Shown here: positions 5,258 to 64,000 of the stretch, piece by piece
Position numbering within the stretch: the first letter of the stretch is position 1
Layout of the letters: each line of letters starts with the position of its first letter
Origin: Candidatus Falkowbacteria bacterium
Lineage (GTDB): Bacteria; Patescibacteriota; Patescibacteriia; Patescibacteriales; GWE2-39-37
Direction: 5' to 3'
DNA length: 64,000 nt
Assembly: GCA_037137775.1 (NCBI GenBank)
Contig: JBAXJQ010000002.1
Location: 25,095-89,094 of the forward strand
The notes under the pieces: model-generated
Databases searched by the model: none
What the model saw: the letters and a program-made list of their open reading frames with translations, nothing else
What the model was told of the DNA's origin: nothing
Program-made: the position numbers and the translations under genes

Positions 5258-5749
5258 ATGAAAACTCCAGTAATTATCGCAGTCGTTTGTGTTGTAGCCA
5301 TTGCTGCTTTTTTTGGTGGCATGACGTATGGCAAATCAACTGTATCAAAAGGCACACAAGTTGGTGTGCAAAATGGCCAAGCAGGTTTTGGTAGTGGTCA
5401 GGCGGGCAGGGGTGCAATGGGACAAGGCTTTCGGGGACCAAATGGACAGGGCAGGGCTAATGGTGGCTTTATCAATGGCGAGGTGTTAAAGAAGGACGCA
5501 CAAAGTGTAACCGTTAAACTACCAGACGGTGGCTCGAAAATTGCCTTCATTTCTGGTAATACGGCAATCTTAAAAACTGCTACCGGTAGTTTGACTGATG
5601 TGATAATCGGTGAAAATGTCTCAATTAATGGCAATCCTAATACTGATGGCAGTGTGACGGCTCAAACTATCTCCATACGTCCGCCACGACCAAGCAATGG
5701 TATGGCTAGTGGTACACCAATTAACAATGACGCACTCCCAATTAAATAA
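5258..5749 (+). CDS. N-terminally membrane-anchored Gly-rich protein with C-terminal beta-rich domain (paralog of 760..1290)
   Basis: TM segment VIIAVVCVVAIAAFFGG, a G/Q-rich linker, and a C-terminal domain similar to that of 760..1290. Confidence 0.55.
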   Translation: MKTPVIIAVVCVVAIAAFFGGMTYGKSTVSKGTQVGVQNGQAGFGSGQAGRGAMGQGFRGPNGQGRANGGFINGEVLKKDAQSVTVKLPDGGSKIAFISGNTAILKTATGSLTDVIIGENVSINGNPNTDGSVTAQTISIRPPRPSNGMASGTPINNDALPIK

Positions 5750-5767
5750 TTAGGTTTTGAGGTTGAT

Positions 5768-5802
5768 AAAAATGTGCTATTATATTAAATAGCACATTTT
5801 TT
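5768..5802 (+). terminator. rho-independent terminator
   Basis: AAAAATGTGCTAT / ATAGCACATTTTTT inverted repeat followed by a T-run. Confidence 0.7.
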
Positions 5803-5825
5803 GTGCCTAATTTTAATTTACTCGT

Positions 5826-7523
5826 ATGTCAAAGGAACAATTTATTAGTAAGCCTGAGTTAAACCCAGTAGAAGTAGACTCTGGTAAAACTGGCGGAGTT
5901 ATGAAGTTTTTTGATTCAGCCGCGGCCAAGTTTGCTCTTTACGGCAGTTTGATGATGGCGGGCGTGGGAGCGCCAAAGGCAGCAAACGTGGAAGCACAAA
6001 CTAGAGCAGGGGAAGTATACCAGCCAGGAATTGAGGCGGCCACTAGTGAAAACGTCTCCAGTCACGTGGAAGATGTAAACATGCCAGATGTACATTGGAC
6101 ATTTTTTAAAACAAATGAAAACGGTGAAACCACCTTTAATCCCTGGTCTTTAATTGCCCCTGCGCAATTAGAAATTCCTTGGACAACACATGAAACTAAG
6201 GTGGCTCAAGTGGCCTTGCCCTATGATCTTTCCCGTCAATTTGATTCGGCAAAAGCGTTAGATCCAGCCGCTAAAGATAAAGTAGCAAATTATATTGCTT
6301 CACAACTCAGGCAACAACTCGGTGAGCGATTGCATTTATTAGGCGAGGATATTCATCGGCTTAAGCATGGTCCAGAAACGGATGCGGAAAATATGAAAGT
6401 GACACAGATTAAATATCTTGGCACTGCTTCACCAGAAGGCCCACAAAGTAAAGGCCCAGAATCTATTATCCCGGGCAATATTGATCCGGAAAATTTGAAA
6501 TTAGCCGGTATTCGCCTGCGCGAGGCTGATCAATCATTAATGCAGGCGTTAGAAAAAGTTGGGGCAAGCCCTGAAACACTAGCGCAAATAAGAAAAGAAT
6601 TTAAAGTTGAGGAATTACAATTAGTTGGTCAGGACTCTCCTGCCTTATTAGAGTTGGCCAAAGACGAGGCAGGTCTTGATGGAGTGGAGAAAATTTTTAA
6701 TTTGGTTATTAAATATAATGAGGCGACTCATAACCCCGCCTATTATGAGTCCCTAACCAAGGGGATGAGTGAAGTGGAAAAAGATGCTTTACATAAAAAA
6801 TTTGATGGCGTGGCAGAAATATTAAGCACTAAGCGCAGTGTTCGAGCAGAGGTTACTTTCGAGGGCAACCGCAAGCATACCTTAATGATTCCACTGCCGC
6901 TAACGCCATTTTTGTTTATTCCTTTCAGGCGAGGCCCAGAATTAGGTGGTCGACGCCAAGACGAACGTCCTAATGGCCCTGGAAATGAACCAAATGGACG
7001 ACCAGGAGAGAGACCAGTTGATGAACCAGTGGGTCGCGGACCAATTTTTAGACCAGAAGAAATTCCACCGATTGTTGGGGCTACACAATTACCAGAACCG
7101 GGTACGCCACAATATGAACGAGTTAGTCGTCAAACGTTGTATGATGATTTGTATCTTCATTTTGACGATAAGGAAACAATTGCTCGAGGCATTGATTATC
7201 GAGCTTTAGCGGACTTGGTGGTTGAAAGTACAAACCAACATAAGTCTGCCGAACATCTAGAAAACGCCTTAACGTTAAAAATTCTGCAAGCTTGGCGCGC
7301 AGCAGATTTGCAAGCTCGTAAAGAGGCCGGTGTGGAGGATGTTACTGGTCTGGATTATGAAAAAGATATTCGACAAATTCAGTATGCCAGAATGCACGCC
7401 AAGGCAATTATCGATTTGGCACAAAAAAAGCAAGCCGATCCCGCCTCTGATTACAATGAAATTATTGCAAAAGATCCGAAATTTCGTGAAGCTTTAATGC
7501 AAAAAACTTTTGATACATTGTAA
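5826..7523 (+). CDS. hypothetical secreted/membrane-anchored protein with an internal P/G/R/E-rich low-complexity linker
   Basis: 565-codon ORF. Hydrophobic segment FALYGSLMMAGVGAP near the N-terminus. Low-complexity stretch RRQDERPNGPGNEPNGRPGERPVDEPVGRGP. No family recognised. Confidence 0.55.
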   Translation: MSKEQFISKPELNPVEVDSGKTGGVMKFFDSAAAKFALYGSLMMAGVGAPKAANVEAQTRAGEVYQPGIEAATSENVSSHVEDVNMPDVHWTFFKTNENGETTFNPWSLIAPAQLEIPWTTHETKVAQVALPYDLSRQFDSAKALDPAAKDKVANYIASQLRQQLGERLHLLGEDIHRLKHGPETDAENMKVTQIKYLGTASPEGPQSKGPESIIPGNIDPENLKLAGIRLREADQSLMQALEKVGASPETLAQIRKEFKVEELQLVGQDSPALLELAKDEAGLDGVEKIFNLVIKYNEATHNPAYYESLTKGMSEVEKDALHKKFDGVAEILSTKRSVRAEVTFEGNRKHTLMIPLPLTPFLFIPFRRGPELGGRRQDERPNGPGNEPNGRPGERPVDEPVGRGPIFRPEEIPPIVGATQLPEPGTPQYERVSRQTLYDDLYLHFDDKETIARGIDYRALADLVVESTNQHKSAEHLENALTLKILQAWRAADLQARKEAGVEDVTGLDYEKDIRQIQYARMHAKAIIDLAQKKQADPASDYNEIIAKDPKFREALMQKTFDTL

Positions 7524-7605: not shown

Positions 7606-7980
7606 ATGACTCTACGTACCTATCTTATAACCATGTTTTTGGCCACAATAATTTGTTGGGCCGGCTGGGGTTATGTCGTTGTGGCAATTGACCCAATTCA
7701 AAGTGGGTTATATGGCCTTGGATTATTTTATTTAGCCTTATTTTTAGCCGTGAGTGGCACGGGCGCTATTTTTGGTTTTTTCGTTCGCTTTATCGCCTTG
7801 AAGCAGGCCCTGGTATTTCACTCGGTGAGTGATGCCTTTCGTCAATCTTTTTTCTTTGGTTTTTTGGTGGTTGCAGTATTGTTTTTATTATCCAGGCAAT
7901 TATTTAGCTGGATAAATATCGCCTTTTTAGTAGTAGGCTTGTCCTTGTTAGAATATTTTTTGGTAAGTTATCGCAAATAA
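7606..7980 (+). CDS. small polytopic membrane protein, unknown function
   Basis: 124 codons with about 4 hydrophobic helices. Confidence 0.55.
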   Translation: MTLRTYLITMFLATIICWAGWGYVVVAIDPIQSGLYGLGLFYLALFLAVSGTGAIFGFFVRFIALKQALVFHSVSDAFRQSFFFGFLVVAVLFLLSRQLFSWINIAFLVVGLSLLEYFLVSYRK

Positions 7981-7984
7981 GTAT

Positions 7985-9013
7985 ATGATTCAAAAACAAC
8001 TTGATAGTATTAAAGCAGAGGTTTTGGGCAAGCTTAACAAGCTGGCAGATTTGCCAGCGGTAAAAGAGCTTCAAACTACGTATCTCGGACGTAAGGGTAA
8101 GCTGACTGAATTATTACGGCAATTGCCGCAATTATCGGTTGAGGATCGCAAGGCAATTGGTCAGGTAGCTAACCGCATTAAACAAGAAGTCGATAGTGCC
8201 TTTGATAAGGCGATCGAAAAATTAGAGGGCGGGGCAAACTTGGCCACTGCCGATGTCAGTTTGCCCGGGATAGTAAAGCCGCAAGGGCATATTCATCCGT
8301 TATCACAAGTACAGCGCGATTTAGAAGAGTTATTTATTTCTATGGGTTTTATGGTTTTGGATGGCCCAGAGCTAGAATCTGATTTTTATAATTTTGAGGC
8401 GCTGAATATTCCGCCACATCATCCGGCGCGAGATATGCAGGACACGTTTTATATTGATAAAAAAAATAAGCAGGGTGAATACGATTTAATCATGCGCACC
8501 CAGACCTCGCCCGTGCAAATTCGGGCCATGCAAAAATATGGTGCGCCGCTGCGCTGTGTTATCCCTGGCCGGGTTTTTCGTTCCGAGGCAACGGACGTAC
8601 GTCATGAACATACCTTTTATCAAATGGAAGGCTTGATGATTGATCGGCACATTACGTTTGCCAACATGAAAGGAGTATTAGAGGCAGTGGCACAACGGTT
8701 GTATGGCCCGGAAACCAAAATGCGTATGCGGCCGAAATTTTATCCTTTTGTGGAGCCAGGAGCGAATGGCGAAATCACTTGTTTTTTATGCAAAGGTGCT
8801 GGTTGCCGTGTTTGCAAAAATACCGGTTGGTTAGAAGTTTTTGGCTCTGGCATGGTTCACCCCAATGTACTGAGGGCTGGCGGAGTGGATCCGGCAAAAT
8901 ATCAGGGCTTTGCCTTTGGCTTTGGTTTGACCCGCTTGGTAATGCTTAAATATAACATTACTGATGTCCGTTTGATGCAGAGTGATGATCTGCGCTTTTT
9001 AGAACAGTTTTAA
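7985..9013 (+). CDS. pheS: phenylalanine--tRNA ligase alpha subunit
   Basis: Class II motifs FRSEATDVRHEHTFYQMEGL and GFAFGFGLTRLVM. Confidence 0.95.
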   Translation: MIQKQLDSIKAEVLGKLNKLADLPAVKELQTTYLGRKGKLTELLRQLPQLSVEDRKAIGQVANRIKQEVDSAFDKAIEKLEGGANLATADVSLPGIVKPQGHIHPLSQVQRDLEELFISMGFMVLDGPELESDFYNFEALNIPPHHPARDMQDTFYIDKKNKQGEYDLIMRTQTSPVQIRAMQKYGAPLRCVIPGRVFRSEATDVRHEHTFYQMEGLMIDRHITFANMKGVLEAVAQRLYGPETKMRMRPKFYPFVEPGANGEITCFLCKGAGCRVCKNTGWLEVFGSGMVHPNVLRAGGVDPAKYQGFAFGFGLTRLVMLKYNITDVRLMQSDDLRFLEQF

Positions 9014-15696: not shown

Positions 15697-16620
15697 ATGA
15701 AAAAAATATTAGCACTCGTTTTAATTTGTATAATTTTTCCTTTTCAAGTCTTTGGTGCGAATAATCCAAATGAAACAAAATTAATTATTGCCAGTGGCAA
15801 GGATTTATCTGGATTGTTGAATAGTATTAAAGTTAAAAGAAATGAAAAGTTACAGAAAGAAATCATGAATAAATATACTCAAGTGCTTATTGGAAAGAAA
15901 AAAATTACTCAAGAGCAAAAATATACCATAAATAATTTTATTACTTATGGTACCGGTAGTACCAAAAAATTAACAACTTTACAGCGTTCAGAAATGGTAA
16001 AAAAGTTTACTTTAAAAAATAATCGATTGCCAATATCTGAAAATGATTGGACAATAATAATAGATACAAAAGCAAGCTCTAATAAAACAGGTGCAATTAG
16101 CTCAACAGTGTATTTTAACGCTGAATACAAAATTCAATTTACTCATCCGGAAAAATGGAATGTGCTTGACCATAAACCAGGCTTGGGGAGTATTATTATA
16201 ACCCCGATAAGTTATAATGACAGAATTAGCAGTGATAAATTTAACCCTCTAGGTGTTGAAATAATTCAATTTGGAAATAATTATAAAGCGGGTGATGCGA
16301 TTAAATCTCTAGCATTAAAATACCCTAAATATATAGAAAGATTTAAAAAGGACTATACTGCTAGTGGCGCAAAATTTATTGAATCAAGGGAAGTAATTGA
16401 TGGCGTAAAAATGAATAAAATATCTGTTACAGATGGTAGTATTAAATACTATTCAACTTTAGATAGTCCACCGATATATCAAGCTGTGGGTGATGTGGAA
16501 CAATATGATTTTGTTTATAATGAAAAATTATATCGGATTTTGTTAATTTGTCCCTCTGCAAATAATGACCAAAAAGTAGTGTTAAATAAAATAATTAATA
16601 GTATAAAATTTATAAAATAG
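15697..16620 (+). CDS. secreted protein, unknown function, with an N-terminal module shared with the previous gene
   Basis: Signal peptide ILALVLICIIFPFQVFG. The module KITQEQKYTINNFITYGTGSTKKLT...NNRLPISENDW is also present in the previous gene. Confidence 0.6.
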   Translation: MKKILALVLICIIFPFQVFGANNPNETKLIIASGKDLSGLLNSIKVKRNEKLQKEIMNKYTQVLIGKKKITQEQKYTINNFITYGTGSTKKLTTLQRSEMVKKFTLKNNRLPISENDWTIIIDTKASSNKTGAISSTVYFNAEYKIQFTHPEKWNVLDHKPGLGSIIITPISYNDRISSDKFNPLGVEIIQFGNNYKAGDAIKSLALKYPKYIERFKKDYTASGAKFIESREVIDGVKMNKISVTDGSIKYYSTLDSPPIYQAVGDVEQYDFVYNEKLYRILLICPSANNDQKVVLNKIINSIKFIK

Positions 16621-16621
16621 T

Positions 16622-16665
16622 CATAAATAAAACGAGTCTCATTTACGAGCCTCGTTTTATTTATG
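16622..16665. terminator. bidirectional terminator between convergent genes
   Basis: 15-bp inverted repeat CATAAATAAAACGAG / CTCGTTTTATTTATG. Confidence 0.7.
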
Positions 16666-16673
16666 TGCGAAAT

Positions 16674-18944
16674 TTATTTTTTATACTCACAGCCCTTGGC
16701 GCTGCATTTGATGGTTTCGTTTTTATCTTCGACTAGTAAACTATCGCACTCGGGGCATTTTTCGCCAGTTGGTTTAGCGGAGAACGAGGTTTTGCAATCG
16801 GGGTACTGGTTACAGGCGTAGAAGACGCCTCGGCGACTACGTTTGGCCACGATTTCACCTTTGCCGCAGGCCGGGCAGGTAACTCCGGTATTCGAACTCT
16901 TGTCGCCAGTATCGATATTTTTTATGTTTTTACATTTGGGGTAGCCGGTGCATGCCAAGAATGGGCCGAAGCGTCCGGTTTTAATAGCCATGGGTTGGCC
17001 GCATTTCTCGCAGACCCGGTCTTTGTACTGCTCTTCAAGCGCTTTCATCTTCTCACTTTTCTCTTTATCAGCTTCTGGTTTGCCATCGGCGCTGAGTGAT
17101 TTGATGTTGCGGCACTCGGGAAAGTTGGAACAGGCTAAGAATTTGCCAAAACGGCCTGTTTTGACAATCATAGGAGAGTTGCACTTGTCGCAAATCTCCT
17201 CGGTTTTTTCTTCTGGCATAATATCCTCCTTATTAATTTCAGTATATTTAGTTTGCAAATTGGCCTCAAACGGTTCGTAGAATTCACGGATGGTTGGTTG
17301 CCACTCGCGCTCGCCCCTCGCAATCTCGTCAAAGTTTTCTTCCATCTTGGCGGTAAACTCAAAGTCCACAATTTCTGGGAAGTGGGCAACTAATAAATCA
17401 TTCACCGTAAAGGCGATGTCGGTTGGCATTAACCGCTTGCCCTCGTCGCGGGTAACGTAGTTGCGGGCTTCAATCGTAGCAATAGTAGGGGCATAGGTAG
17501 ATGGTCGGCCGATGCCGTAACGCTCAAGCACCTTTACCAAGCCAGCATCGGAATAGCGGGCGGGTGGTTTAGTAAAATGTTGCTCTGGTTTAAGCTCAAT
17601 TAAATCAAGGGTATCTTTGTCGTTTACCACTGGTAAAATAGTGTCGTTACTTTTTTCCGGATAGATTTTTAAATAGCCATCGAAGATCAAGACCTGACCA
17701 GTGGCCTTGAAAAAATGATCACCAGCTGATTTAGTTTTGGCTTCAATCTCGATTTCCGTGGCATTCACCAAAGCATCTGGCATCTGGCTGGCCAGAGAAC
17801 GTTGCCAGATGAGCTGATATAACCGGAATTGATTTTTATTCAAAGAAAGTTCGATACTTTCCGGAGTGCGCATAGCTTCGGTTGGGCGGATGGCTTCGTG
17901 CGCTTCTTGAGCCCCCTTGCTTTTGGTCTTAACTTGGCGCGGTTTTGCAAGCGCATATTTTTCGCCTAGCGTGTCGGTTAAGAATTGTTTTGACTCGCCT
18001 AAAAACTTTTCGGATAGATTAAACGAGTCGGTACGCATGTAGGTAATCAAACCAACTTGGCCTTCGCCGGTCAATTCCACACCTTCATAAAGTTGTTGTG
18101 CCAACATCATGGTTTGCTTGGCACTGAAACCGAGCCAGCGATTGGCGGTTTGTTGTAGGGACGAGGTAGTAAATGGTTTTGGTGCATTGCGTTTGGCTTG
18201 ACGTTGTTTGATATTAGCAACCTGGTAATCAGCATTTTCTAAATCAGCCACTACGGTCTTGGCGGCTTCGTCGTTTTTAAAGGCAAATTTGTCTAAGGTT
18301 TTATCGCCAATTTTATACAGTTGCGCTGGGAGAATTTCTTTTTTAGGGGTGGCGAGATTAGCGCCTATAGTCCAATATTCTTCGGTATTAAATTTTTGGA
18401 TCTCACGTTCGCGCTCCACCACCAGGCGGACGGCTACGCTTTGGACGCGACCCGCGGATAAACCTTTGACTACTTTTTTCCAGAGAAAAGGGGAGAGTTT
18501 GTAGCCAACCAAACGATCAAGTACGCGGCGGGCTTGTTGGGCATCAACCAATTGTAAATCAATTTGGCGTGGATGTTCCATCGCCTCTTTGATGGCTTTT
18601 TCTGTGATTTCATGAAAGACAATGCGCTCAACTTTTTCTGGTGTTTTTTCCAAACCTAAAGCCTGCGCCAAGTGCCAAGCAATTGCCTCTCCTTCACGGT
18701 CTTCGTCCGAAGCCAGAATGATTTTTTTAGCTTTTTCCGCAGCCTTTTTTAAACCGGTAACGGTTTTTTTGGCTTTGGTAGGAATAACGTATTTTGGTTC
18801 GAAGTTTTTTTCCAAGTCCACGCCCAAAGTGCTTTTGGGCAGATCACGAATGTGGCCAAAAGAAGAGGTAACGTTGTAGCCTTTGCCTAAAAATTTAGCA
18901 ATGGTTTTGGCTTTGGTTGGAGATTCGACGATGATTAAGTTCAT
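16674..18944 (-). CDS. topA: DNA topoisomerase I with four C-terminal zinc-ribbon repeats
   Basis: Toprim start MNLIIVESPTKAKTI, active-site motif ITYMRTDS, and four CxxC...CxxC repeats at the C-terminus. Confidence 0.95.
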   Translation of the reverse strand: MNLIIVESPTKAKTIAKFLGKGYNVTSSFGHIRDLPKSTLGVDLEKNFEPKYVIPTKAKKTVTGLKKAAEKAKKIILASDEDREGEAIAWHLAQALGLEKTPEKVERIVFHEITEKAIKEAMEHPRQIDLQLVDAQQARRVLDRLVGYKLSPFLWKKVVKGLSAGRVQSVAVRLVVEREREIQKFNTEEYWTIGANLATPKKEILPAQLYKIGDKTLDKFAFKNDEAAKTVVADLENADYQVANIKQRQAKRNAPKPFTTSSLQQTANRWLGFSAKQTMMLAQQLYEGVELTGEGQVGLITYMRTDSFNLSEKFLGESKQFLTDTLGEKYALAKPRQVKTKSKGAQEAHEAIRPTEAMRTPESIELSLNKNQFRLYQLIWQRSLASQMPDALVNATEIEIEAKTKSAGDHFFKATGQVLIFDGYLKIYPEKSNDTILPVVNDKDTLDLIELKPEQHFTKPPARYSDAGLVKVLERYGIGRPSTYAPTIATIEARNYVTRDEGKRLMPTDIAFTVNDLLVAHFPEIVDFEFTAKMEENFDEIARGEREWQPTIREFYEPFEANLQTKYTEINKEDIMPEEKTEEICDKCNSPMIVKTGRFGKFLACSNFPECRNIKSLSADGKPEADKEKSEKMKALEEQYKDRVCEKCGQPMAIKTGRFGPFLACTGYPKCKNIKNIDTGDKSSNTGVTCPACGKGEIVAKRSRRGVFYACNQYPDCKTSFSAKPTGEKCPECDSLLVEDKNETIKCSAKGCEYKK

Positions 18945-19301: not shown

Positions 19302-20402
19302 TTAAATTCGAATAAATTGCATTCCGCCGATATTACGTACCAGACTCTTAATTTCTAAAAGTGTTAAAGCACTGCCAACCTGTCCGGTAGGCAGTGAAAC
19401 TTGGGTGGAAATTAGGTCAATATGGAGCGGTTCTTGGCTTAGGATAGTTAAAATTGTTTGCTCTTCCTCGCTAAGGTCTTCCGGCATGGTTAACGCAATA
19501 TGAGAATCACTATACTGATTCATGGGCGAAAGGTCAAGGGCAGCTAAAATATCCTCACTAGAAGTGACTGGCGTGGCTCCTTGTTTGATAAGCATATTGG
19601 TGCCGCTTGATTGGTCGGTAAAGATACTACCCGGTACGGCTAAAACCTCTCGACCTTGTTCTAGGGCGAGGTTAGCAGTAATCAAAGAGCCTGATTTTCT
19701 GGAAGCTTCTATTATTATCGTAGCAATTGAGAGGCCGGAGATGATGCGATTGCGCAAGGGGAAGTGGTGGCGCAAGGGTGCAGTGAAGGGTGGAAATTCG
19801 GAAATAACCATGCCGCCATGTTCAACAATAGATTTGGCTAAATGACGATTGGTTGCTGGATAAATAGTTGTTTGGTTAATGCCACAGCCCAGAACGGCAA
19901 TGGTTTTGCCCTTATTTTGGAGTGTGGTTTGATGAGCCAAGGTGTCGATGCCGTAGGCCAAGCCACTCACAATAACTGCACCAGCCTGGGCGGTTTCGCC
20001 AATCAGACGTTCGACGGCCAATTGGCCATAATGACTATATTTGCGGGCACCGACCACGGCCAAACACACCTCTTGCCAGCAGGGTGTGCCTTGATAAAAG
20101 AGTAAAAAAGGCGGTTGACTGATAGTTTTAAGCAGCGTTGGGTATTCGGCTTGGTTTTTTGTAATTAATTGAATATTTTCTGTAGCAATGGTTTTTTCTA
20201 GGCGGGTTAAATTAATGGTTGCGCGGAAGGCAATAAACTCACTCGCTTTGGCTTCATCTATGCCGGCCAAGATTAAAGCTGATTTATTGGCCTTGAATAT
20301 TTTTTCTGGGTCGAACAAAGAATTTGCTAATTTTTCGAGGCTGACACTGCCAAATTTGGGAAAACTGGCCACGGCGGACCAAAAGAGCGTTGACAAATCC
20401 AT
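19302..20402 (-). CDS. dprA: DNA processing protein DprA/Smf
   Basis: Rossmann-like core VVGARKYSHYG...IVSGLAYGIDTLAHQTTL...AVLGCGI...FPLRNRIISGL. Confidence 0.9.
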   Translation of the reverse strand: MDLSTLFWSAVASFPKFGSVSLEKLANSLFDPEKIFKANKSALILAGIDEAKASEFIAFRATINLTRLEKTIATENIQLITKNQAEYPTLLKTISQPPFLLFYQGTPCWQEVCLAVVGARKYSHYGQLAVERLIGETAQAGAVIVSGLAYGIDTLAHQTTLQNKGKTIAVLGCGINQTTIYPATNRHLAKSIVEHGGMVISEFPPFTAPLRHHFPLRNRIISGLSIATIIIEASRKSGSLITANLALEQGREVLAVPGSIFTDQSSGTNMLIKQGATPVTSSEDILAALDLSPMNQYSDSHIALTMPEDLSEEEQTILTILSQEPLHIDLISTQVSLPTGQVGSALTLLEIKSLVRNIGGMQFIRI

Positions 20403-20484
20403 TTATTTACTTAATATTAGCTATAATGTAATTATTTTGGCCAAGATCATTGACATTTGTTTGATTTCGTGATACCATAGAGTA

Positions 20485-20695
20485 TCACTAGTGGCTGAAT
20501 TACTACTTGTTATTGGGTGAGAAACTTAAGTACCTTTCCTCCTTGAGTATTTATTTTTCATAGCCCTTAAACAAGTAGTAACTTGTCCATTAGTTCTGAC
20601 ACCACTTTTATAGTTGAACCGGTCAGATAGCGCAATATCCAATATTCAAGCGCAACAAGATAATGAAAAGAAGGCCACGTGCCTTCTTTTGTGTT
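20485..20695 (+). ncRNA. candidate small RNA (identity unknown), antisense to the orientation of both flanking genes
   Basis: TTGACA (20450-20455), a 17-nt spacer, then TGaTACCAT (20470-20478) upstream. A 12-bp long-range stem pairs 20500-20511 with 20570-20581, with further hairpins. Terminator hairpin plus T-run at 20666-20695. Confidence 0.25.
20666..20695. terminator. hairpin terminator (usable on either strand)
   Basis: AAGAAGGC-CACGT-GCCTTCTT flanked by an A-run and a T-run. It lies 10 nt beyond the pth stop. Confidence 0.7.
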
Positions 20696-30584: not shown

Positions 30585-30648
30585 GTTTTGAATAAATAAA
30601 AAAGCCGTGGCGCATTTACGCGCCACGGCTTTTTTATTTATTCAAAAC
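30585..30648. terminator. 29-bp perfect inverted repeat; bidirectional terminator
   Basis: GTTTTGAATAAATAAAAAAGCCGTGGCGC - ATTTAC - GCGCCACGGCTTTTTTATTTATTCAAAAC between convergent genes. Confidence 0.85.
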
Positions 30649-30652
30649 TATG

Positions 30653-30919
30653 TCATTTTTTTGTGTCCGTTCGCTCGATTACGTTTCGACCGACAAGATG
30701 CAAGATTATTCCAATGGGTAATGCCCATGGTACGCTGACATATAAGTTATGAATGAAAAATAGTACAATAAACCTTGAGTTATTAGAGCAGTTATACGCA
30801 TTAAAAAAATCAGGATAACAGGGGGTTGAGTAGCTGTCAAAGATTGACTTTATAAGCATTATGCTGAAATAAGCCAGGAAATAAATTACTGTCAGCTTGG
30901 TTAGTTGTCTTTTAGTCAT
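30653..30919 (-). CDS. small membrane protein, unknown function
   Basis: 88-codon AT-rich ORF with hydrophobic helices. Confidence 0.4.
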   Translation of the reverse strand: MTKRQLTKLTVIYFLAYFSIMLIKSIFDSYSTPCYPDFFNAYNCSNNSRFIVLFFIHNLYVSVPWALPIGIILHLVGRNVIERTDTKK

Positions 30920-58367: not shown

Positions 58368-58427
58368 AAATTATTTTAACATAACCATAACTTATGTTAT
58401 AATTACTTTGTGTTTTTAAAAATTTGT

Positions 58428-60191
58428 ATGAAAATTGATTTAAGCCAACATTGCAAAATTTCATTGTTTAGTACATTTTTTGTTTTTGTTTTTCTACTCC
58501 TCGCTCACCGCGGCGAAGCCGCGGTGTTCTCCCATAACCTCAGTCAAGGCAGTCGTGACACCGAGGTTAAAGCCCTACAACAGTATTTAAATACCCATGG
58601 CTATCCGGTAGCACGTACTGGTGCTGGCTCTCAGGGCAAGGAAACCATGGTATTCGGTCCGGCCACCAAACAAGCCCTCATTCATTTTCAGAAGGATAAT
58701 CACATTACCCCAGCCAATGGCTATTTTGGCCCTGCTACCCGCAAGGTTATGGCTACGGTGCGGAGTGCCGCAGGCACTACGCCAATCCCCAAGACTCCCC
58801 CAGCTACTCCATTATCTACACCCAAACCAGCAAACCCCCCAGTCATTCCAGAAGCACCTCTCCCCAGTACACCAGAGATCACCCTGGCAACCTACACCAT
58901 CGGGGGTACCATCATGGGGCTCACTGGTCAGGTAACGCTCACAAACAATGCCACTGACCAACTCAGCCTCACCCCTGCTAGCGCCAGTCTGTTTACCTTT
59001 CCCACCGCACTGCCTACCGGGGCACGCTATAATGTGACCGCTACCCCCAGGGGTATTAACGAGCATTGTTTTCTCATTAATAACTCCGGCATGGTAGCGA
59101 GTACCAACATCACCACCATTCAGATTGCCTGTGGTACCACACTCACCGACACTACTCCAGCCAATCCCTTTACCAATCCCATCATCCCCAGTAGTGCTCC
59201 CACTACCCATGAGCTCAGCTACACGACGGATGGTCATGGTACGATCACTGGCTCCTCTACGCAGAGTATTACCTTCTCTGCGAACGGAACTGAGATAACC
59301 GCTACCCCAAATACCGGCTATCACTTTACCACCTGGAATGATGGGCTCACCAACCCCAGGAGAACCGATACTAATATCAGGAGTGCCCAGACTTATACGG
59401 CTAACTTTGCTATCAATATCTACACCTTAACCTACACGGCCGGTGCGAACGGCACCCTCAGTGGTACTACCACTCAGACGGTGACGCATGGCAGTGCTGG
59501 TACCGAGGTATTAGCCATCCCAGATGCTAATTATCATTTTGTGAGTTGGAGTGATGGGGTATTAACTGCTTCCAGGACGGATAGTAGTGTTACTTCGTCG
59601 TTAGCAGTTACGGCCAGTTTTGCTGATTGTGGGGAAATAGTAACTGATGCACGAGATGGTAATACGTATCCAACCGTTAAAATTGGTAGCCAGTGCTGGA
59701 TGGCCAAAAATGCGGCCTATCTACCCAGTGTAGTACCTGCTGCTACCGGTGGTGCCTCACCGTACTATTATGTTTATGGCTATCAGGGTTCTAGTACGGT
59801 TGTGGCTAAAGCTCAAGTCAACTATACAAAATACGGTGTGCATTATAATTATCCAGCTGCACTTACCGCCTGTCCTGCTGGTTGGCACCTGGCTACTGAT
59901 GCTGAATATACGGTTCTTACCACCTATTTAGATCCTTCGGTGGCTGGCACTAAAGTTAAATCCACCTCTACTTGGGTAGGTGGCACTAATACTTCTGGTT
60001 TTTCTGGTGAACCTGCTGGCTCTCGTGAACCTGCCGGCTGGTTTGGTTTTAGCGGTACAGACGGCTTTTTCTGGACGGCTACTCCAAGTGGCGGGAATGC
60101 CTGGATTCGTAATTTGTATTCAGGTTCAGATTTTTGGCGGGGTGCAGCTAATCAGTTGTACGGATTTTCTGCCCGTTGCCTTAAGGATTAA
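58428..60191 (+). CDS. secreted protein: peptidoglycan-binding domain + Listeria/Bacteroides-type (InlB B-repeat-like) repeats + Fibrobacter succinogenes major paralogous (FISUMP) C-terminal domain
   Basis: PG-binding segment VKALQQYLNTHGY...FGPATKQALIHFQ. Repeats YTLTYTAGANGTLSG...ANYHFVSWSDG. C-terminal segment DARDGNTYPTVKIGSQCWMAKN...GWHLATDAEY...GFSARCLKD. Confidence 0.7.
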   Translation: MKIDLSQHCKISLFSTFFVFVFLLLAHRGEAAVFSHNLSQGSRDTEVKALQQYLNTHGYPVARTGAGSQGKETMVFGPATKQALIHFQKDNHITPANGYFGPATRKVMATVRSAAGTTPIPKTPPATPLSTPKPANPPVIPEAPLPSTPEITLATYTIGGTIMGLTGQVTLTNNATDQLSLTPASASLFTFPTALPTGARYNVTATPRGINEHCFLINNSGMVASTNITTIQIACGTTLTDTTPANPFTNPIIPSSAPTTHELSYTTDGHGTITGSSTQSITFSANGTEITATPNTGYHFTTWNDGLTNPRRTDTNIRSAQTYTANFAINIYTLTYTAGANGTLSGTTTQTVTHGSAGTEVLAIPDANYHFVSWSDGVLTASRTDSSVTSSLAVTASFADCGEIVTDARDGNTYPTVKIGSQCWMAKNAAYLPSVVPAATGGASPYYYVYGYQGSSTVVAKAQVNYTKYGVHYNYPAALTACPAGWHLATDAEYTVLTTYLDPSVAGTKVKSTSTWVGGTNTSGFSGEPAGSREPAGWFGFSGTDGFFWTATPSGGNAWIRNLYSGSDFWRGAANQLYGFSARCLKD

Positions 60192-60734: not shown

Positions 60735-61337
60735 ATGGCTATTATTAAAAAAGAACGGACGTTAATAATCCTTAAGCCGGATACCATCCAACGTTCCATG
60801 ATCGGAGAGATTATCGGCCGCATCGAACGGACTGGTTTGAAATTTACTGCTTTGAAATTTGTCGTGCCTCAGGAAGAGCAATGCTGGACCCATTATAACA
60901 AAGACGAAGCGTGGTTTAACGAAAAAGGTGCCCGTGTGATAAAAGAGCGTGAGGCCCAAGGAATGTCGGTTGATAAACCAGCCTTGGAATATGGTAAAGA
61001 TATTTTGCGAGGCAATGTTTTGTTTTTTACCTCCGGTCCTGTTTTGGTGGCTGTAGTAGAGGGCAATCAAGCAGTTGGCATTGTTAAAAAATTAGTAGGA
61101 GCTACCGAGCCATTAACATCTGACGTGGGTACTATCCGCGGTGATTTAACCATTGATTCTTATGCCTTGGCTGGTATCGATGGTCGGGCAGTACGTAATC
61201 TTATCCACTGTTCTGATAAACCAGAAGAAGCCGAGCGGGAGATTCAGATTTGGCTAAAACCAGAGGAAATAATCAACTATCGCTTGGTAGCCGAACAAAT
61301 TCTATACGATGTTAATTTAGATGGTATTTTAGAATAA
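60735..61337 (+). CDS. ndk: nucleoside diphosphate kinase (long form with an internal insertion)
   Basis: ERTLIILKPD...RGD...NLIHCSD active-site His context. Confidence 0.88.
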   Translation: MAIIKKERTLIILKPDTIQRSMIGEIIGRIERTGLKFTALKFVVPQEEQCWTHYNKDEAWFNEKGARVIKEREAQGMSVDKPALEYGKDILRGNVLFFTSGPVLVAVVEGNQAVGIVKKLVGATEPLTSDVGTIRGDLTIDSYALAGIDGRAVRNLIHCSDKPEEAEREIQIWLKPEEIINYRLVAEQILYDVNLDGILE

Positions 61338-61364
61338 AGCTAATTTTAGCTAAAATATGTAATA

Positions 61365-61393
61365 TTGACAACTCTCTGGTTGTTCGGTATATT
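61365..61393 (+). promoter_or_regulatory. candidate promoter giving a leaderless or near-leaderless transcript of the mini-ORF
   Basis: TTGACA (61365-70), a 17-nt spacer, then TATATT (61388-93). The ATG is at 61403. Confidence 0.45.
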
Positions 61394-61402
61394 ATATATA
61401 AT

Positions 61403-61480
61403 ATGAAAAAGTTTAACAGCACCATTATTACCCTCAGTGTCGTCCTCCTCTTTGGTAAGGACAACTTGGTGCTGGGTTAA
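61403..61480 (+). CDS. 25-codon mini-ORF rich in Ile/Leu/Val; candidate attenuation leader peptide
   Basis: MKKFNSTIITLSVVLLFGKDNLVLG, in which 10 of 25 residues are I, L or V. Its 3' end can pair with the 5' arm of the downstream terminator. Confidence 0.4.
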   Translation: MKKFNSTIITLSVVLLFGKDNLVLG

Positions 61481-61504
61481 ATAAATAATCACAAGATTAT
61501 ATAG

Positions 61505-61532
61505 AAAAAACCTAGCACACGCTAGGTTTTTT
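61505..61532 (+). terminator. rho-independent terminator (attenuator candidate)
   Basis: AACCTAGC-ACAC-GCTAGGTT followed by TTTT, with an A-run on the 5' side. Confidence 0.75.
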
Positions 61533-61559
61533 CATTAGCAGTTCATTCGACAAAAATTA

Positions 61560-62345
61560 TTGGTTATTTTGACCTTTGCATAAAAAGTGCAGGCGAACAA
61601 CGCCACTTGGTCTAGCACAAACCCACCGGTTAGTGCGACAATTTAAGAACTTTTTATGCAAAGGTCGCCCATCGAGGCCTTGCCTCACTACCAGATATGG
61701 AGGATTTACCCATGAGCAATATCGCAGGCGAAAGCGACGTCAGTTGCAAAGGTCCACATCGTTGTGCAAGGAAGTGTCAAAATCTGGCAAAATGTGAATG
61801 TTTGAGACGACCTGGCTCGTCTCATCGGCAATCAGGAAATCCTGGTTTACGAACAAGGAGACAAAATCCCCGTTTAGGGGAGCAGTCAATCATGGGTGCT
61901 TACGACTTATAACCAATAATGAACATCAGTAAAATGAGTGGGGCATTACTTCCCCATGAAGCCTTACTGTCCCTCCGTCGAGACTAAGTCTCTGAATGAT
62001 AAAAGCACTCAACAGGGCCTTAACTGTTGAATAAGTTGTTCGCTTTTATCAAAGGACGCCTGTAAATGGGACAGACTGTCTTAAGCCTATGTCGACTTAA
62101 CACGGTGCAGGTGAAAAAAACTCAAAGGCAATGCTGATGATCATATCGGGGGAGGGGAATAAGCTTCGGCTTAAACTCCTCCCCCACCTAGAATATTCTA
62201 AAACGATTCACATATGTCTGCTGTTTTATATCAACTAAACCCACTCTCGCTCGAGCTTTTGTCTCGAGCTGGCTTTGTGTTATGCCCTTGATTTTTGATT
62301 AAATCGATGGTAAAACAGAAAGCCACCAATTTGGTGATTTTTTTG
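61560..62345 (+). ncRNA. candidate large structured RNA or unannotated element (identity unknown)
   Basis: About 0.8 kb with only short Arg/Cys-rich ORFs. Many hairpins with GAAA (61728-35) and UUCG (62148-62185) capped stems, and an 8-bp long-range pairing of 61708-15 with 61890-97. It ends at a weak hairpin plus T7 (62322-62344). Confidence 0.3.
61571..61666. repeat. 18-bp perfect inverted repeat separated by 60 nt
   Basis: GACCTTTGCATAAAAAGT (61571-88) and ACTTTTTATGCAAAGGTC (61649-66). Confidence 0.9.
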
Positions 62346-62500
62346 TATAAAAATGCTCTTTACATTATAAACATTGTTTGTAAAAAACAAACAAAGAAAG
62401 GAAAAAAAATGATTATTTTGGGTTTATCACCCAATCGTTCGGGGCGAAGTTGACGTTTACGGCTAAGGCCACAACATGCGCATACGCGCAGGAGGTTCAC

Positions 62501-64000
62501 ATGAGCGCATCACAGTTAATCAGGATTTTTGACACCACCCTTCGGGACGGCGAGCAATCTCCAGGCAACAGCATGAACATCGAGGAGAAACTGCGGATTG
62601 CCAAACAACTCCAGAAGTTGAACGTCGACGTAATTGAGGCCGGTTTTCCCATTGCATCCGAAGGTGATTTCGAGGCCGTCAAGCGGGTCGCTCAGACCAT
62701 CAAGGGGCCGGAGATCGCCGGACTGTGTCGCGCCAGTGACAAAGACATCGACCGGTGTTGGGAAGCGCTCGCGCCTGCCGGTGAGAAAGGCCGGATCCAC
62801 ACCTTCATCGCTACCTCGGACATCCACATGAAGTACAAGTTGCGAATGTCACCTGTTCAAGTACTCGAAGCTGCAGTTAAAGCGGTTAAGCGTGCGGCCA
62901 GCTATACTCCAAACGTAGAATTTTCCTGTGAGGATGCTGTCCGTACCAATCTGCCGTTTCTGGCCGAAGTAGTCGAGGCTGTTATTGCCGCCGGGGCTAC
63001 TACGGTCAACATTCCAGACACCGTCGGTTATACGGTGCCCAGCGAGTACGGTAATATCATGCGGTATCTTCGGGAATTCGTTTCGAATATCGACAAGGCC
63101 GTTATCTCGGTCCATTGTCATAATGATCTCGGCTTGGCTGTGGCCAATTCAATCGCTGCCATTAGCGGTGGTGCTCGACAAGTCGAATGTACCATCAATG
63201 GCATCGGAGAACGGGCCGGTAACTGCTCACTGGAAGAGTTCGTGATGATACTCAAAACCAGGAGCGACATCTTGCCATTCCGCACGAACGTAGTATCGGA
63301 ACAACTCACCCCAGCCAGTCGGCTCCTCACAACCATCACTGGCACTATGGTGCAGTCGAACAAGGCGGTGGTCGGTGCTAATGCGTTTGCCCACGAATCG
63401 GGAATCCACCAGCACGGGATGATCATGGATAACTCCACCTATGAGATAATGACTCCCGAATCAGTTGGTCTCAAGGCCAATGCGCTGGTGTTAGGAAAAC
63501 ACTCCGGTAGTCATGCTTTTAATAAGCGACTTAGGGAGATGGGGTACGACCTGAACGAAGAAGACCTCAAAAAGGCCTTTGTCAAATTCAAAGATCTGGC
63601 CGACCTCAAGAAAGAAGTCTTTGATGAGGATCTCGATGCCATCGTGGCGGAAGAGGTGATGCGGCCGGCGGAGAAGTATAAGCTGGATCACATTACCGTC
63701 ACCTGCGGTTCATTTTCTGTGGCAACTGCTACTGTGCAACTGGAAATTGACGGTGTACCGGTTCGAACGGCCGAGTTGGGAGACGGACCGGTTGATGCCA
63801 CCTTCAAGGCAATTAAAAAGTTGACCAAGAGCAAAGCCAAACTTGAACGGTACAATGTGGGAGCAATTACGGGTGGCACCGACGCTCAGGGTGAGGCTAC
63901 GGTAAAGTTGAAGTATGGTGATGTAACCGTAAATGGTCGTGGTGCTTCAACTGATATTATCGAAGCCTCGGCCAAAGCTTACGTCGACGCCCTGAATCGG
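62501..64000 (+). CDS. leuA: 2-isopropylmalate synthase (3' end beyond the window)
   Basis: My own translation gives MSASQLIRIFDTTLRDGEQSPG...HCHNDLGLAVANS...GERAGN...HESGIHQHG plus the C-terminal LeuA dimerisation/regulatory region. Strong SD GGAGG 5 nt upstream. The gene is absent from the ORF track because no stop codon falls in the window. Confidence 0.9.
   Translation, partial: MSASQLIRIFDTTLRDGEQSPGNSMNIEEKLRIAKQLQKLNVDVIEAGFPIASEGDFEAVKRVAQTIKGPEIAGLCRASDKDIDRCWEALAPAGEKGRIHTFIATSDIHMKYKLRMSPVQVLEAAVKAVKRAASYTPNVEFSCEDAVRTNLPFLAEVVEAVIAAGATTVNIPDTVGYTVPSEYGNIMRYLREFVSNIDKAVISVHCHNDLGLAVANSIAAISGGARQVECTINGIGERAGNCSLEEFVMILKTRSDILPFRTNVVSEQLTPASRLLTTITGTMVQSNKAVVGANAFAHESGIHQHGMIMDNSTYEIMTPESVGLKANALVLGKHSGSHAFNKRLREMGYDLNEEDLKKAFVKFKDLADLKKEVFDEDLDAIVAEEVMRPAEKYKLDHITVTCGSFSVATATVQLEIDGVPVRTAELGDGPVDATFKAIKKLTKSKAKLERYNVGAITGGTDAQGEATVKLKYGDVTVNGRGASTDIIEASAKAYVDALNR

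Follow-up and report, generated by a model that had tools for sequence, protein, structure and literature searches.

The strongly folded ndk-leuA gap of a Patescibacteria contig: a probable leuA leader transcript with two putative attenuators and an orphan middle

The window analysed here is a stretch of 64,000 nucleotides (nt) of contig JBAXJQ010000002.1, assigned to a Candidatus Falkowbacteria bacterium, and its host belongs to the Patescibacteria (Candidate Phyla Radiation, CPR), of the Moran/Magasanik type. Near the end of the window, a gap of 1,163 nt separates the stop codon of ndk (60735-61337), which lies directly upstream, from the start codon of leuA, an ATG at 62501 and not at 62502. 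The gap holds no open reading frame (ORF) of at least 100 amino acids (aa) and is the longest such ORF-poor stretch within the window. An initial annotation had noted a lack of convincing ORFs here and proposed a large structured RNA of unknown class for most of the gap. The RNA-level structure is real, but it does not appear to be that of a single RNA: the 3′ 130 nt read as a leucine-rich attenuator, and the same slot in relatives is occupied by small protein genes. About one sixth of the stretch is a new example of a known mechanism, leader-peptide attenuation, and the rest is an unconserved, strongly folded orphan.

Comparisons draw on ~165 related loci (1.45 Mb), among them 80 genome-collection and 80 metagenome loci around ndk, numbered here with the prefix L. 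The Ndk protein of the window is found, identical, on contigs from three samples, the source samples being ERZ27300140, ERZ27300155 and SRR7053514. In all three recovered copies the DNA that runs from ndk into leuA matches the window at 100% identity, and the copies are therefore uninformative on constraint. The nearest other Ndk proteins, among 185,579 species genomes and the JGI metagenomes, are 70-76% identical, that of L050 being 70% identical. Within the related loci searched, leuA follows ndk in only two other lineages, L050/L137 and L024/L102, whose LeuA proteins are 79% and 62% identical to that of the window.

The 5′ part of the gap has the layout of an attenuator. Its features are given below, with z as the deviation of folding energy from that of dinucleotide shuffles.

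61365-61393, + strand: sigma-70-type promoter, TTGACA, 17 nt, TATATT (11 of 12 consensus positions)
61403-61480, + strand: leader ORF 1, apparently leaderless, MKKFNSTIITLSVVLLFGKDNLVLG, 25 codons with I, L or V in 10
61471-61478, + strand: predicted antiterminator 5′ strand, formed by the last codons of leader ORF 1, GCUGGGUU
61504-61533, + strand: predicted terminator 1, a perfect 13-bp stem and a U run, -21.9 kcal/mol, z -10.7

The promoter is the sole strong match on the + strand, and L050 and the leader family have kept both its position and its spacing of 9 nt from the ATG. Within the terminator, the 5′ arm AACCUAGC (61509-16) has 61471-78 as its alternative partner. Promoter, small ORF and terminator together (61365-61534) constitute one copy of an element that follows ndk in at least 17 CPR loci; other copies lie, for example, at L132 5827-6032, L042 6648-6851, L034 6649-6844 and L013 6741-6944. 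This element is ~145-200 nt long and is not in Rfam. It consists of TTGACA, 17 nt and TATAAT, an ATG placed 8-10 nt past the -10 box (which makes a leaderless transcript probable), 19-34 codons of hydrophobic ORF with GYYGGGU at the end, and a terminator of the form CCCRGC-loop-GYYGGG followed by a U run.

A covariance model of the element, R2, was built from 21 sequences, and a search with it of the window and the 80 genome-collection loci recovers 17 of these sequences at E < 1e-6. Window 61400-61534 is itself included in the training alignment and scores 84.8 bits. Over these 21 sequences, pairing reaches 99% in the terminator and 99.2% in the alternative helix between GYYGGG and the terminator 5′ arm. 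In 9 of the 21, one terminator base is G instead of A, and both of its partners have changed with it (U-A to C-G). Since the same three-way covariation keeps both terminator and antiterminator, both states are under selection, the signature of a real switch. The nhmmer alignment of window 61361-61627 to L050 6643-6921 (E ~3e-5) covers the same element, and Rfam returns a weak Thr_leader match at 61389-61535 (18.9 bits; gathering 55).

The leader peptide of the element resembles the N-terminal membrane segment of a ~400-aa protein that is encoded downstream in most loci. A duplicated gene start may therefore be the origin of the leader, or else the leader may serve to monitor membrane targeting in the manner of MifM and SecM. 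The ~400-aa protein has a weak DUF553 match, and at L040 4119-5306 and L088 5173-6360 the element is the 5′ end of the gene for this protein itself.

A second set of features lies immediately upstream of leuA.

62214-62291, + strand: leader ORF 2, MSAVLYQLNPLSLELLSRAGFVLCP, 25 codons, 7 of them Leu
62249-62269, + strand: pause-type hairpin GCUCGAG/CUCGAGC, over Leu codons
62270-62325, + strand: predicted antiterminator hairpin 2, -27.2 kcal/mol, z -5.1, with the stop codon (62289-91) in its 5′ arm
62315-62344, + strand: predicted terminator 2, with a CACCA/UGGUG core, an A-run/U-run extension and then U7 (hairpin plus U7, 62324-62344)

In its architecture, 62214-62344 matches a classical leader-peptide attenuator that precedes a gene of the leucine pathway. 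This assignment explains the last two helices singled out in the initial annotation and also its weak hairpin followed by T7, which is found at 62324-62344 in the minimum-free-energy (MFE) fold. Leucine accounts for 28% of leader ORF 2 against 7.7% in the proteome (P = 0.002). The comparison at this checkpoint covers three lineages only (the window, L050/L137 and L024), and each has a leader ORF at the same place: MKKAIKKNSLSLSLSLLLLRWSFVV in L050/L137, with 7 Leu of 25 in L050 and 8 of 25 in L137, and MNNFINNNLLNLSSLVIEV in L024, with 4 of 19. The 3′ arm of the antiterminator overlaps the 5′ side of the terminator at 62315-25, making the two folds mutually exclusive; with the antiterminator 5′ arm removed, the effect expected of a terminating ribosome, the terminator folds at -9.9 kcal/mol (-16.6 in L050). 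The same antiterminator hairpin is present in L050 (-29.2 kcal/mol, z -4.3), with matched changes in both arms, and the T7-GT tail of the terminator is invariant in 4 sequences. As a whole, 62205-62350 has z -4.9, none of 100 shuffles being as stable, and a weak Phe_leader match in Rfam covers 62265-62347 (19.7 bits; gathering 55).

The second attenuator may be a diverged duplicate of the first. Leader 2 of L050, which is outside the training set of R2, scores 35.5 bits against that model (E = 0.0034). Leader 2 of the window is without the GYYGGGU/CCCRGC switch, and its long hairpin would serve as antiterminator. A weak R2 match is also found at L025 8116-8249 (24.6 bits, E = 0.27), just 5′ of a distant HMGL-like gene that starts at 8302 and whose product is 30% identical to LeuA.

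Together, these features lead us to read the region, with a probability of about 55%, as the interior of one ~1.1-kb leuA leader transcript with two checkpoints, and not as a free-standing large RNA. Transcription would start at ~61400 from the promoter at 61365-93, and the leaderless 25-codon hydrophobic ORF would be translated. A ribosome at its stop codon would cover GCUGGGUU and let the terminator at 61504-33 form, and one stalled earlier would free that strand to pair with the terminator 5′ arm, giving read-through. The read-through RNA would carry a 19-bp hairpin in a 5′ untranslated region (UTR), a possible gene of 66 codons (ORF66), a 226-nt folded spacer and a stable hairpin. At the second checkpoint, stalling on the seven Leu codons (62214-91) would keep the antiterminator at 62270-325, and fluent translation to the leader 2 stop would melt it, so that the terminator at 62315-44 forms. 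leuA would then be expressed only from transcripts that pass both checkpoints. Termination would thus respond to amino-acid supply, the middle would be transcribed, and its folds may act on mRNA stability or on translation of ORF66. Comparative evidence backs both attenuators; the function proposed for the middle is an inference.

The gap is exceptional in how strongly it folds, and the hairpin density reported for it exceeds chance. The MFE of 61540-62350 is -278 kcal/mol, compared with -207 +/- 7.8 in dinucleotide shuffles (z -9.2 for the + and -6.0 for the - strand). When the 64 kb were scanned in 200-nt windows, 327 in all with a background z of -0.5 +/- 1.5, the two most extreme values both came from the gap, at 61501 (z -9.7) and 62201 (z -6.5), and nearly all windows from 61301 to 62301 have z below -2.6. 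The middle, 61534-62213, has z -8.6 on the + strand and -5.6 on the - strand. Only 17 of the 256 pairs in the MFE fold of the region are G-U, the rest being Watson-Crick, and the preference for the + over the - strand is therefore modest. Other strongly folded 200-nt windows on the + strand are 20401-20600 (z -5.7), 30601-30800 (-4.5), 16601-16800 (-4.5) and 2601-2800 (-4.9); the first three lie in or beside intergenic gaps and are folded on both strands, and the last is within a gene and folded on the + strand only.

The individual helices that had been proposed from the sequence fared unevenly. Those at 62148-62185, 61803-61824, 61867-61881, 61980-61992 and 62249-62269 are in the MFE fold with pair probabilities of 0.7-1.0. 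The proposed long-range pairing is present but comprises 9 bp (61707-15 with 61890-98) rather than 8, and the supposed GC-GAAA-GC tetraloop hairpin (61728-35) is a mere 2-bp stem outside the MFE fold. The strongest elements had been overlooked, namely a 19-bp stem, a 12-bp long-range repeat and the 12-bp helix that closes domain B. These define the middle as follows.

61556-61920, + strand: domain A, with a perfect 12-bp repeat (61556-67 with 61909-20) as its closing helix, pair probability 0.96
61570-61667, + strand: hairpin A1, a 19-bp stem (61570-88 with 61649-67) around three small hairpins, pair probability 0.97
61712-61912, + strand: ORF66, from ATG 61712 to TAA 61912, 66 codons with 5 Cys, preceded by the Shine-Dalgarno (SD) motif GGAGG (61699-61703) at 8-nt spacing
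61919-62144, + strand: domain B, a 226-nt multi-branch fold with a 12-bp closing helix (61919-31 with 62132-44), z -4.9
62148-62185, + strand: hairpin C, a UUCG-looped stem of 10+5 bp not followed by a U run, pair probability 1.0, z -5.1

Domain A (365 bp) contains both A1 and ORF66 and has z -7.1, or -4.0 without A1; A1 (61568-61669, z -5.9) sits in the 5′ UTR of ORF66. Domain B is without an SD-preceded ORF, and none of 100 shuffles is as stable. Hairpin C lies 28 nt 5′ of leader ORF 2, and the equivalent place in L050 (~7890-7925), as read from the sequence, holds a GC-rich hairpin that is likewise without a U run. A1, the rest of domain A, domain B, hairpin C and 62205-62350 are each more stable than all 100 of their shuffles.

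None of the searches made with the middle returned a relative. At Rfam 15 gathering thresholds the whole window gave no match (including RNase P, tmRNA, signal recognition particle RNA, 6S, OLE, GOLLD, ROOL, raiA, introns, riboswitches and T-box), and at E <= 10 over the region the matches are all sub-threshold and driven by terminators and hairpins, in agreement with the earlier view that no known RNA family is present. The window likewise holds no tRNA or tmRNA genes. With nhmmer and blastn against the 80 genome and 80 metagenome loci, only L050/L137 match, and only at the two attenuators. Smith-Waterman alignments of the middle to those of L050 and L024 are no better than alignments of shuffles, tblastx and tblastn with the small proteins of L050 and L024 found nothing, and a covariance model of domain B (R1) found no match in the related loci. 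Blastn of phage and plasmid collections with the middle was also negative; an 18-mer match of A1 in viral contigs is a chance match. Within the window, the region shows no similarity to a repeat of the diversity-generating retroelement type, to another copy of itself or to the Fib_succ_major gene. Homologues with covarying pairs, as expected of a conserved class of structured RNA, were thus not found for 61534-62213 in the ~165 related loci or the phage and plasmid collections searched, and the stretch shows no covariation and no sign of conservation. A frameshifted pseudogene was rejected on inspection of six frames, none of which has coding periodicity. The idea that A1 arose from the 3′ half of the leader element by duplication was also discarded, since nhmmer gives no match despite the shared TTGCATAAAAA / TTTATGCAA.

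The folding invites a different interpretation, in which 61534-62213 is a lineage-specific structured non-coding RNA (ncRNA) that acts in cis on leuA or in trans, is gated by the upstream attenuator and contains ORF66 only incidentally. Such an RNA would account for the extreme fold, significant in every sub-domain and better on the + than on the - strand, for the nested architecture with closing helices of 10-12 bp and pair probabilities above 0.9, for the Arg/Cys-rich composition of ORF66 and its want of a coding signal, and for the stretch 61913-62213, which holds no other SD-preceded ORF. Its standing is lowered by the failure of nhmmer, covariance models, Rfam and the phage and plasmid collections to return a homologue, by the protein genes that occupy the syntenic slot in every relative, and by helices so long and nearly perfect, with so few G-U pairs, that they look young and not long-selected. 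The strong SD and 66 open codons described below, improbable by chance, also count against it, and we regard it as unlikely. Its more specific form, a ~650-nt orphan structured RNA of two closed multi-helix domains and a UUCG-capped hairpin that replaced the small-protein genes of relatives and is made only on read-through of the upstream attenuator, we regard as quite unlikely; if true, an organism with almost no biosynthesis would have a regulatory or dual-function RNA that is induced by starvation.

ORF66 is a candidate for a small basic Cys-rich protein. Both + strand ORFs of the initial annotation are present, at 61576-61797 (73 aa) and 61697-61912 (71 aa, or 66 aa from ATG 61712). The 66-codon Cys-rich ORF had been put forward there as a competing explanation; it gains support from its position and from its strong SD, for which the spacing is 8 rather than 7 nt, and what it lacks is a homologue and coding statistics. 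Among the + strand ORFs of the gap, a GGAGG-class SD precedes ORF66 alone, the others having only AAGG, and by our own rough estimate the chance of finding GGAGG, 8 nt, an ATG and 66 open codons is ~0.01. Its SD and start (61707-15) are paired with its own 3′ end (61890-98) over 9 bp, with probability 0.93. AlphaFold 2 gives a mean predicted local distance difference test (pLDDT) score of 57.6, rising to ~74 over the Cys-rich residues 11-30; for the comparison small protein P0126 it gives pLDDT 47, which is uninformative.

All relatives have 1-5 SD-preceded small ORFs of 50-140 codons next to the leader element, on its 3′ side, which are lineage-specific and in several cases Cys-rich. ORF66 follows the pattern of these genes, with a strong SD at 5-9 nt, an ATG, a length of 50-140 codons and a place directly after the leader terminator. 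Hypervariable arrays of such genes lie at L119 5966-7030, L168 2766-3584, L110 2273-2992, L030 6880-7230, L023 6945-7517, L050 6934-7886 and L024 6724-7362. Between L119 and L168, the 59 codons of a Cys-rich ORF comprise 28 identical, 17 synonymous and 14 non-synonymous codons, a pattern of purifying selection that marks a real gene. A profile of four small proteins found only 3 proteins among 5.8 billion. As the small proteins of this locus are lineage-specific everywhere, an ORF66 without homologue is not unusual here. Three HMMER matches to ORF66 are artefacts, being tandem-repeat proteins. Kinship with the Zn-ribbon and other Cys-motif proteins, with which it has CxxPxxC and a C-terminal GAY in common, was rejected because BLASTP of ORF66 against L119_62, L168_59 and the Zn-ribbon ORFs gave no significant match. 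Weighing its signals, we consider translation of ORF66 to be nearly an even question, leaning slightly towards doubt.

Several observations weigh against a two-checkpoint leader transcript. Leader ORF 2 is without an SD and without a promoter of its own in the window, and terminator 2, with its 5-bp core and -9.9 kcal/mol, is weak. Leader 2 of the window (62211-62346) has no significant score against R2 (3.4 bits, E = 2), and its homology to L050 rests on an alignment and on a marginal nhmmer match (62239-62348 with L050 7977-8091, E = 0.4). ORF66 has a coding score of -10.6, whereas native genes reach +14.3 +/- 6.3 and the foreign leuA +11; another frame scores equally well or better, and neither word-indexed nor exhaustive HMMER searches found a homologue. 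Helices so long and so nearly perfect are not typical of RNA folds with a long functional history. In relatives, moreover, the small-ORF regions have z from +0.8 to -6.7 (median ~ -1.9), and L132 (-6.7) and L023 (-4.9) alone reach -4 or lower; as these regions are mostly not unusually folded, the z of -8.6 in the window is not explained by simply being mRNA. The extreme folding of the middle is a real peculiarity of the lineage of the window.

Two further explanations were weighed. In one, the middle is a decaying, non-functional remnant of a small-gene array, its hairpins are recent inverted duplications or insertions, and only the attenuators function. The perfection of the helices (18/18, 12/12 and 10/10) is what young repeats would be expected to show. 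A Zn-ribbon protein common to L050 and L024 is absent from the window, as are its small neighbour genes; the middle shows neither conservation nor a coding signal, and the identity of the three locus copies leaves constraint uninformative, all of which would suit decay. Neutral DNA as old as the split from L050, however, should fold like its shuffles, and its z is instead -8.6. The intact strong SD with its 66-codon ORF also speaks against advanced decay. In a compact genome, as is the rule in CPR bacteria, a regulated leader would not usually contain 650 nt of dead DNA. We consider such a remnant distinctly unlikely.

In the other, domain A, A1 or both are inserted elements resembling miniature inverted-repeat transposable elements (MITEs) or repetitive extragenic palindromes (REPs). 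The perfect 12-bp terminal inverted repeat around 365 bp and the perfect 18-bp repeat around 96 bp have the expected form, and relatives do contain palindromic repeat families, with five copies in L051, for example. These AT-rich repeats of MITE/REP type (~110-180 nt) are multi-copy in related CPR genomes, at L051 2846-2934, 4302-4706 and 5698-5991, L128 10122-10233, L012 3005-3165 and L132 5650-5790. They are, however, unrelated in sequence to the folds of the window. Reading of the sequence shows no target-site duplication, no second copy of A1 exists in the 64-kb window or, by covariance-model search, in the 7 kb beyond it (L001), and phage, plasmid and viral collections gave nothing beyond one chance 18-mer. 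We regard an insertion of this kind as very improbable.

The features of leuA itself and of the adjoining 3′ end of the gap are as follows.

62409-62453, + strand: short upstream ORF (uORF), MIILGLSPNRSGRS, 14 codons, between terminator 2 and leuA, of uncertain relevance
62501-64000, + strand: leuA, 2-isopropylmalate synthase, continuing past the end of the window; the full gene (538 aa) is at L001 11767-13383

The gene looks to have been acquired from Geobacteraceae, with the T-box of the donor replaced. Its product shows 86-87% identity to the LeuA proteins of Geobacteraceae-type loci, which have a psd-pssA-leuA arrangement or sigma-54 two-component neighbours, and which in L164-L166 carry a T-box leader (120-133 bits). 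The GC content of leuA is 0.50-0.57 compared with ~0.40 in its flanks, and the gene stands alone, without leuBCD. The LeuA proteins of the window and of L050 are each nearer to Geobacteraceae sequences than to each other. That the leaders are common to the CPR loci argues for a single acquisition, after which leader-peptide control took the place of the T-box. A T-box relic was sought and rejected: none is found in the window at any Rfam threshold, and nhmmer with donor-type loci gave no similarity. Between terminator 2 and leuA, an A-run can pair with the U-run of the terminator (62326-44 with 62403-21), and a GCGC-AUAC-GCGC hairpin adjoins the leuA SD. None of the features of 62345-62500 (the uORF, the A-run pairing and this hairpin) is conserved in L050.

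The surroundings of ndk vary beyond leuA. In two relatives a 23S rRNA gene follows ndk (L082 7157-10901 and L099 2704-3364), with a 5S gene after it in L082, and the position downstream of ndk is therefore variable in the clade. Another post-ndk gap, that of L118 (within 5588-6412), contains a strongly folding inverted repeat of ~270 nt (5848-6121; z -7.3 on the + strand and -4.3 on the - strand) without an Rfam match, and its first ~190 nt are conserved in L038, L039, L009, L043 and L081. Upstream of ndk, window 58410-60191 is a GC-richer stretch (0.50-0.56) that encodes a protein of secreted type (593 aa) in which PG_binding_1, Flg_new_2 and Fib_succ_major domains are present; this gene and the studied region have no repeat in common.

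These findings illustrate that a call of "large structured RNA" from hairpin density can prove composite, here probably of attenuators, small-gene mRNA and spacer. Only the 650-nt core stays a candidate RNA, and it is one without conservation evidence. A lone Geobacteraceae-type leuA in a CPR genome would have exchanged a tRNA-sensing T-box for tandem ribosome-sensing leader peptides. If confirmed, the locus would clearly exemplify translation-coupled attenuation in Patescibacteria and would offer a handle on how these auxotrophs sense amino acids.

Comparison with known systems places the two parts of the gap differently. The middle resembles large ncRNAs (OLE, GOLLD, ROOL, raiA, HEARO, RNase P, tmRNA, 6S and introns) in size (0.65-0.8 kb) and in its multi-domain fold, but it differs from them in having no Rfam match at E <= 10, no homologues and no covariation, and in helices that are unusually long and perfect. 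The attenuator at 62214-62344 is close to the leu, ilv, thr and phe leaders of enterobacteria (Thr_leader RF00506, Phe_leader RF01859), which likewise have a short ORF rich in cognate codons and a pause-type hairpin over the regulatory codons, and in which translation selects between antiterminator and intrinsic terminator. In contrast to these leaders, leader 2 of the window shows only sub-threshold covariance-model similarity, is without an SD and has a weak terminator; it is also the second of a tandem, lies ~700 nt past the promoter, belongs to a CPR host and precedes a lone acquired leuA.

Leu-rich uORFs that control branched-chain amino acid synthesis or leuA at the RNA level are also found outside Proteobacteria, as in the window. 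The ilv-leu operon of Staphylococcus aureus has a Leu-rich attenuator peptide (PMC5794164), and the actinobacterial LEU element 5′ of leuA contains Leu-codon leader ORFs and is described as a pseudoknot in which the run of Leu codons pairs with the leuA SD, often without a terminator (PMC1262725). Unlike the LEU element, the window has a terminator with a U7 tail and no pairing between Leu codons and SD. The Geobacteraceae leuA T-box (RF00230) occupies the same place before the most similar LeuA genes, where the regulator of the window appears to be a leader peptide instead.

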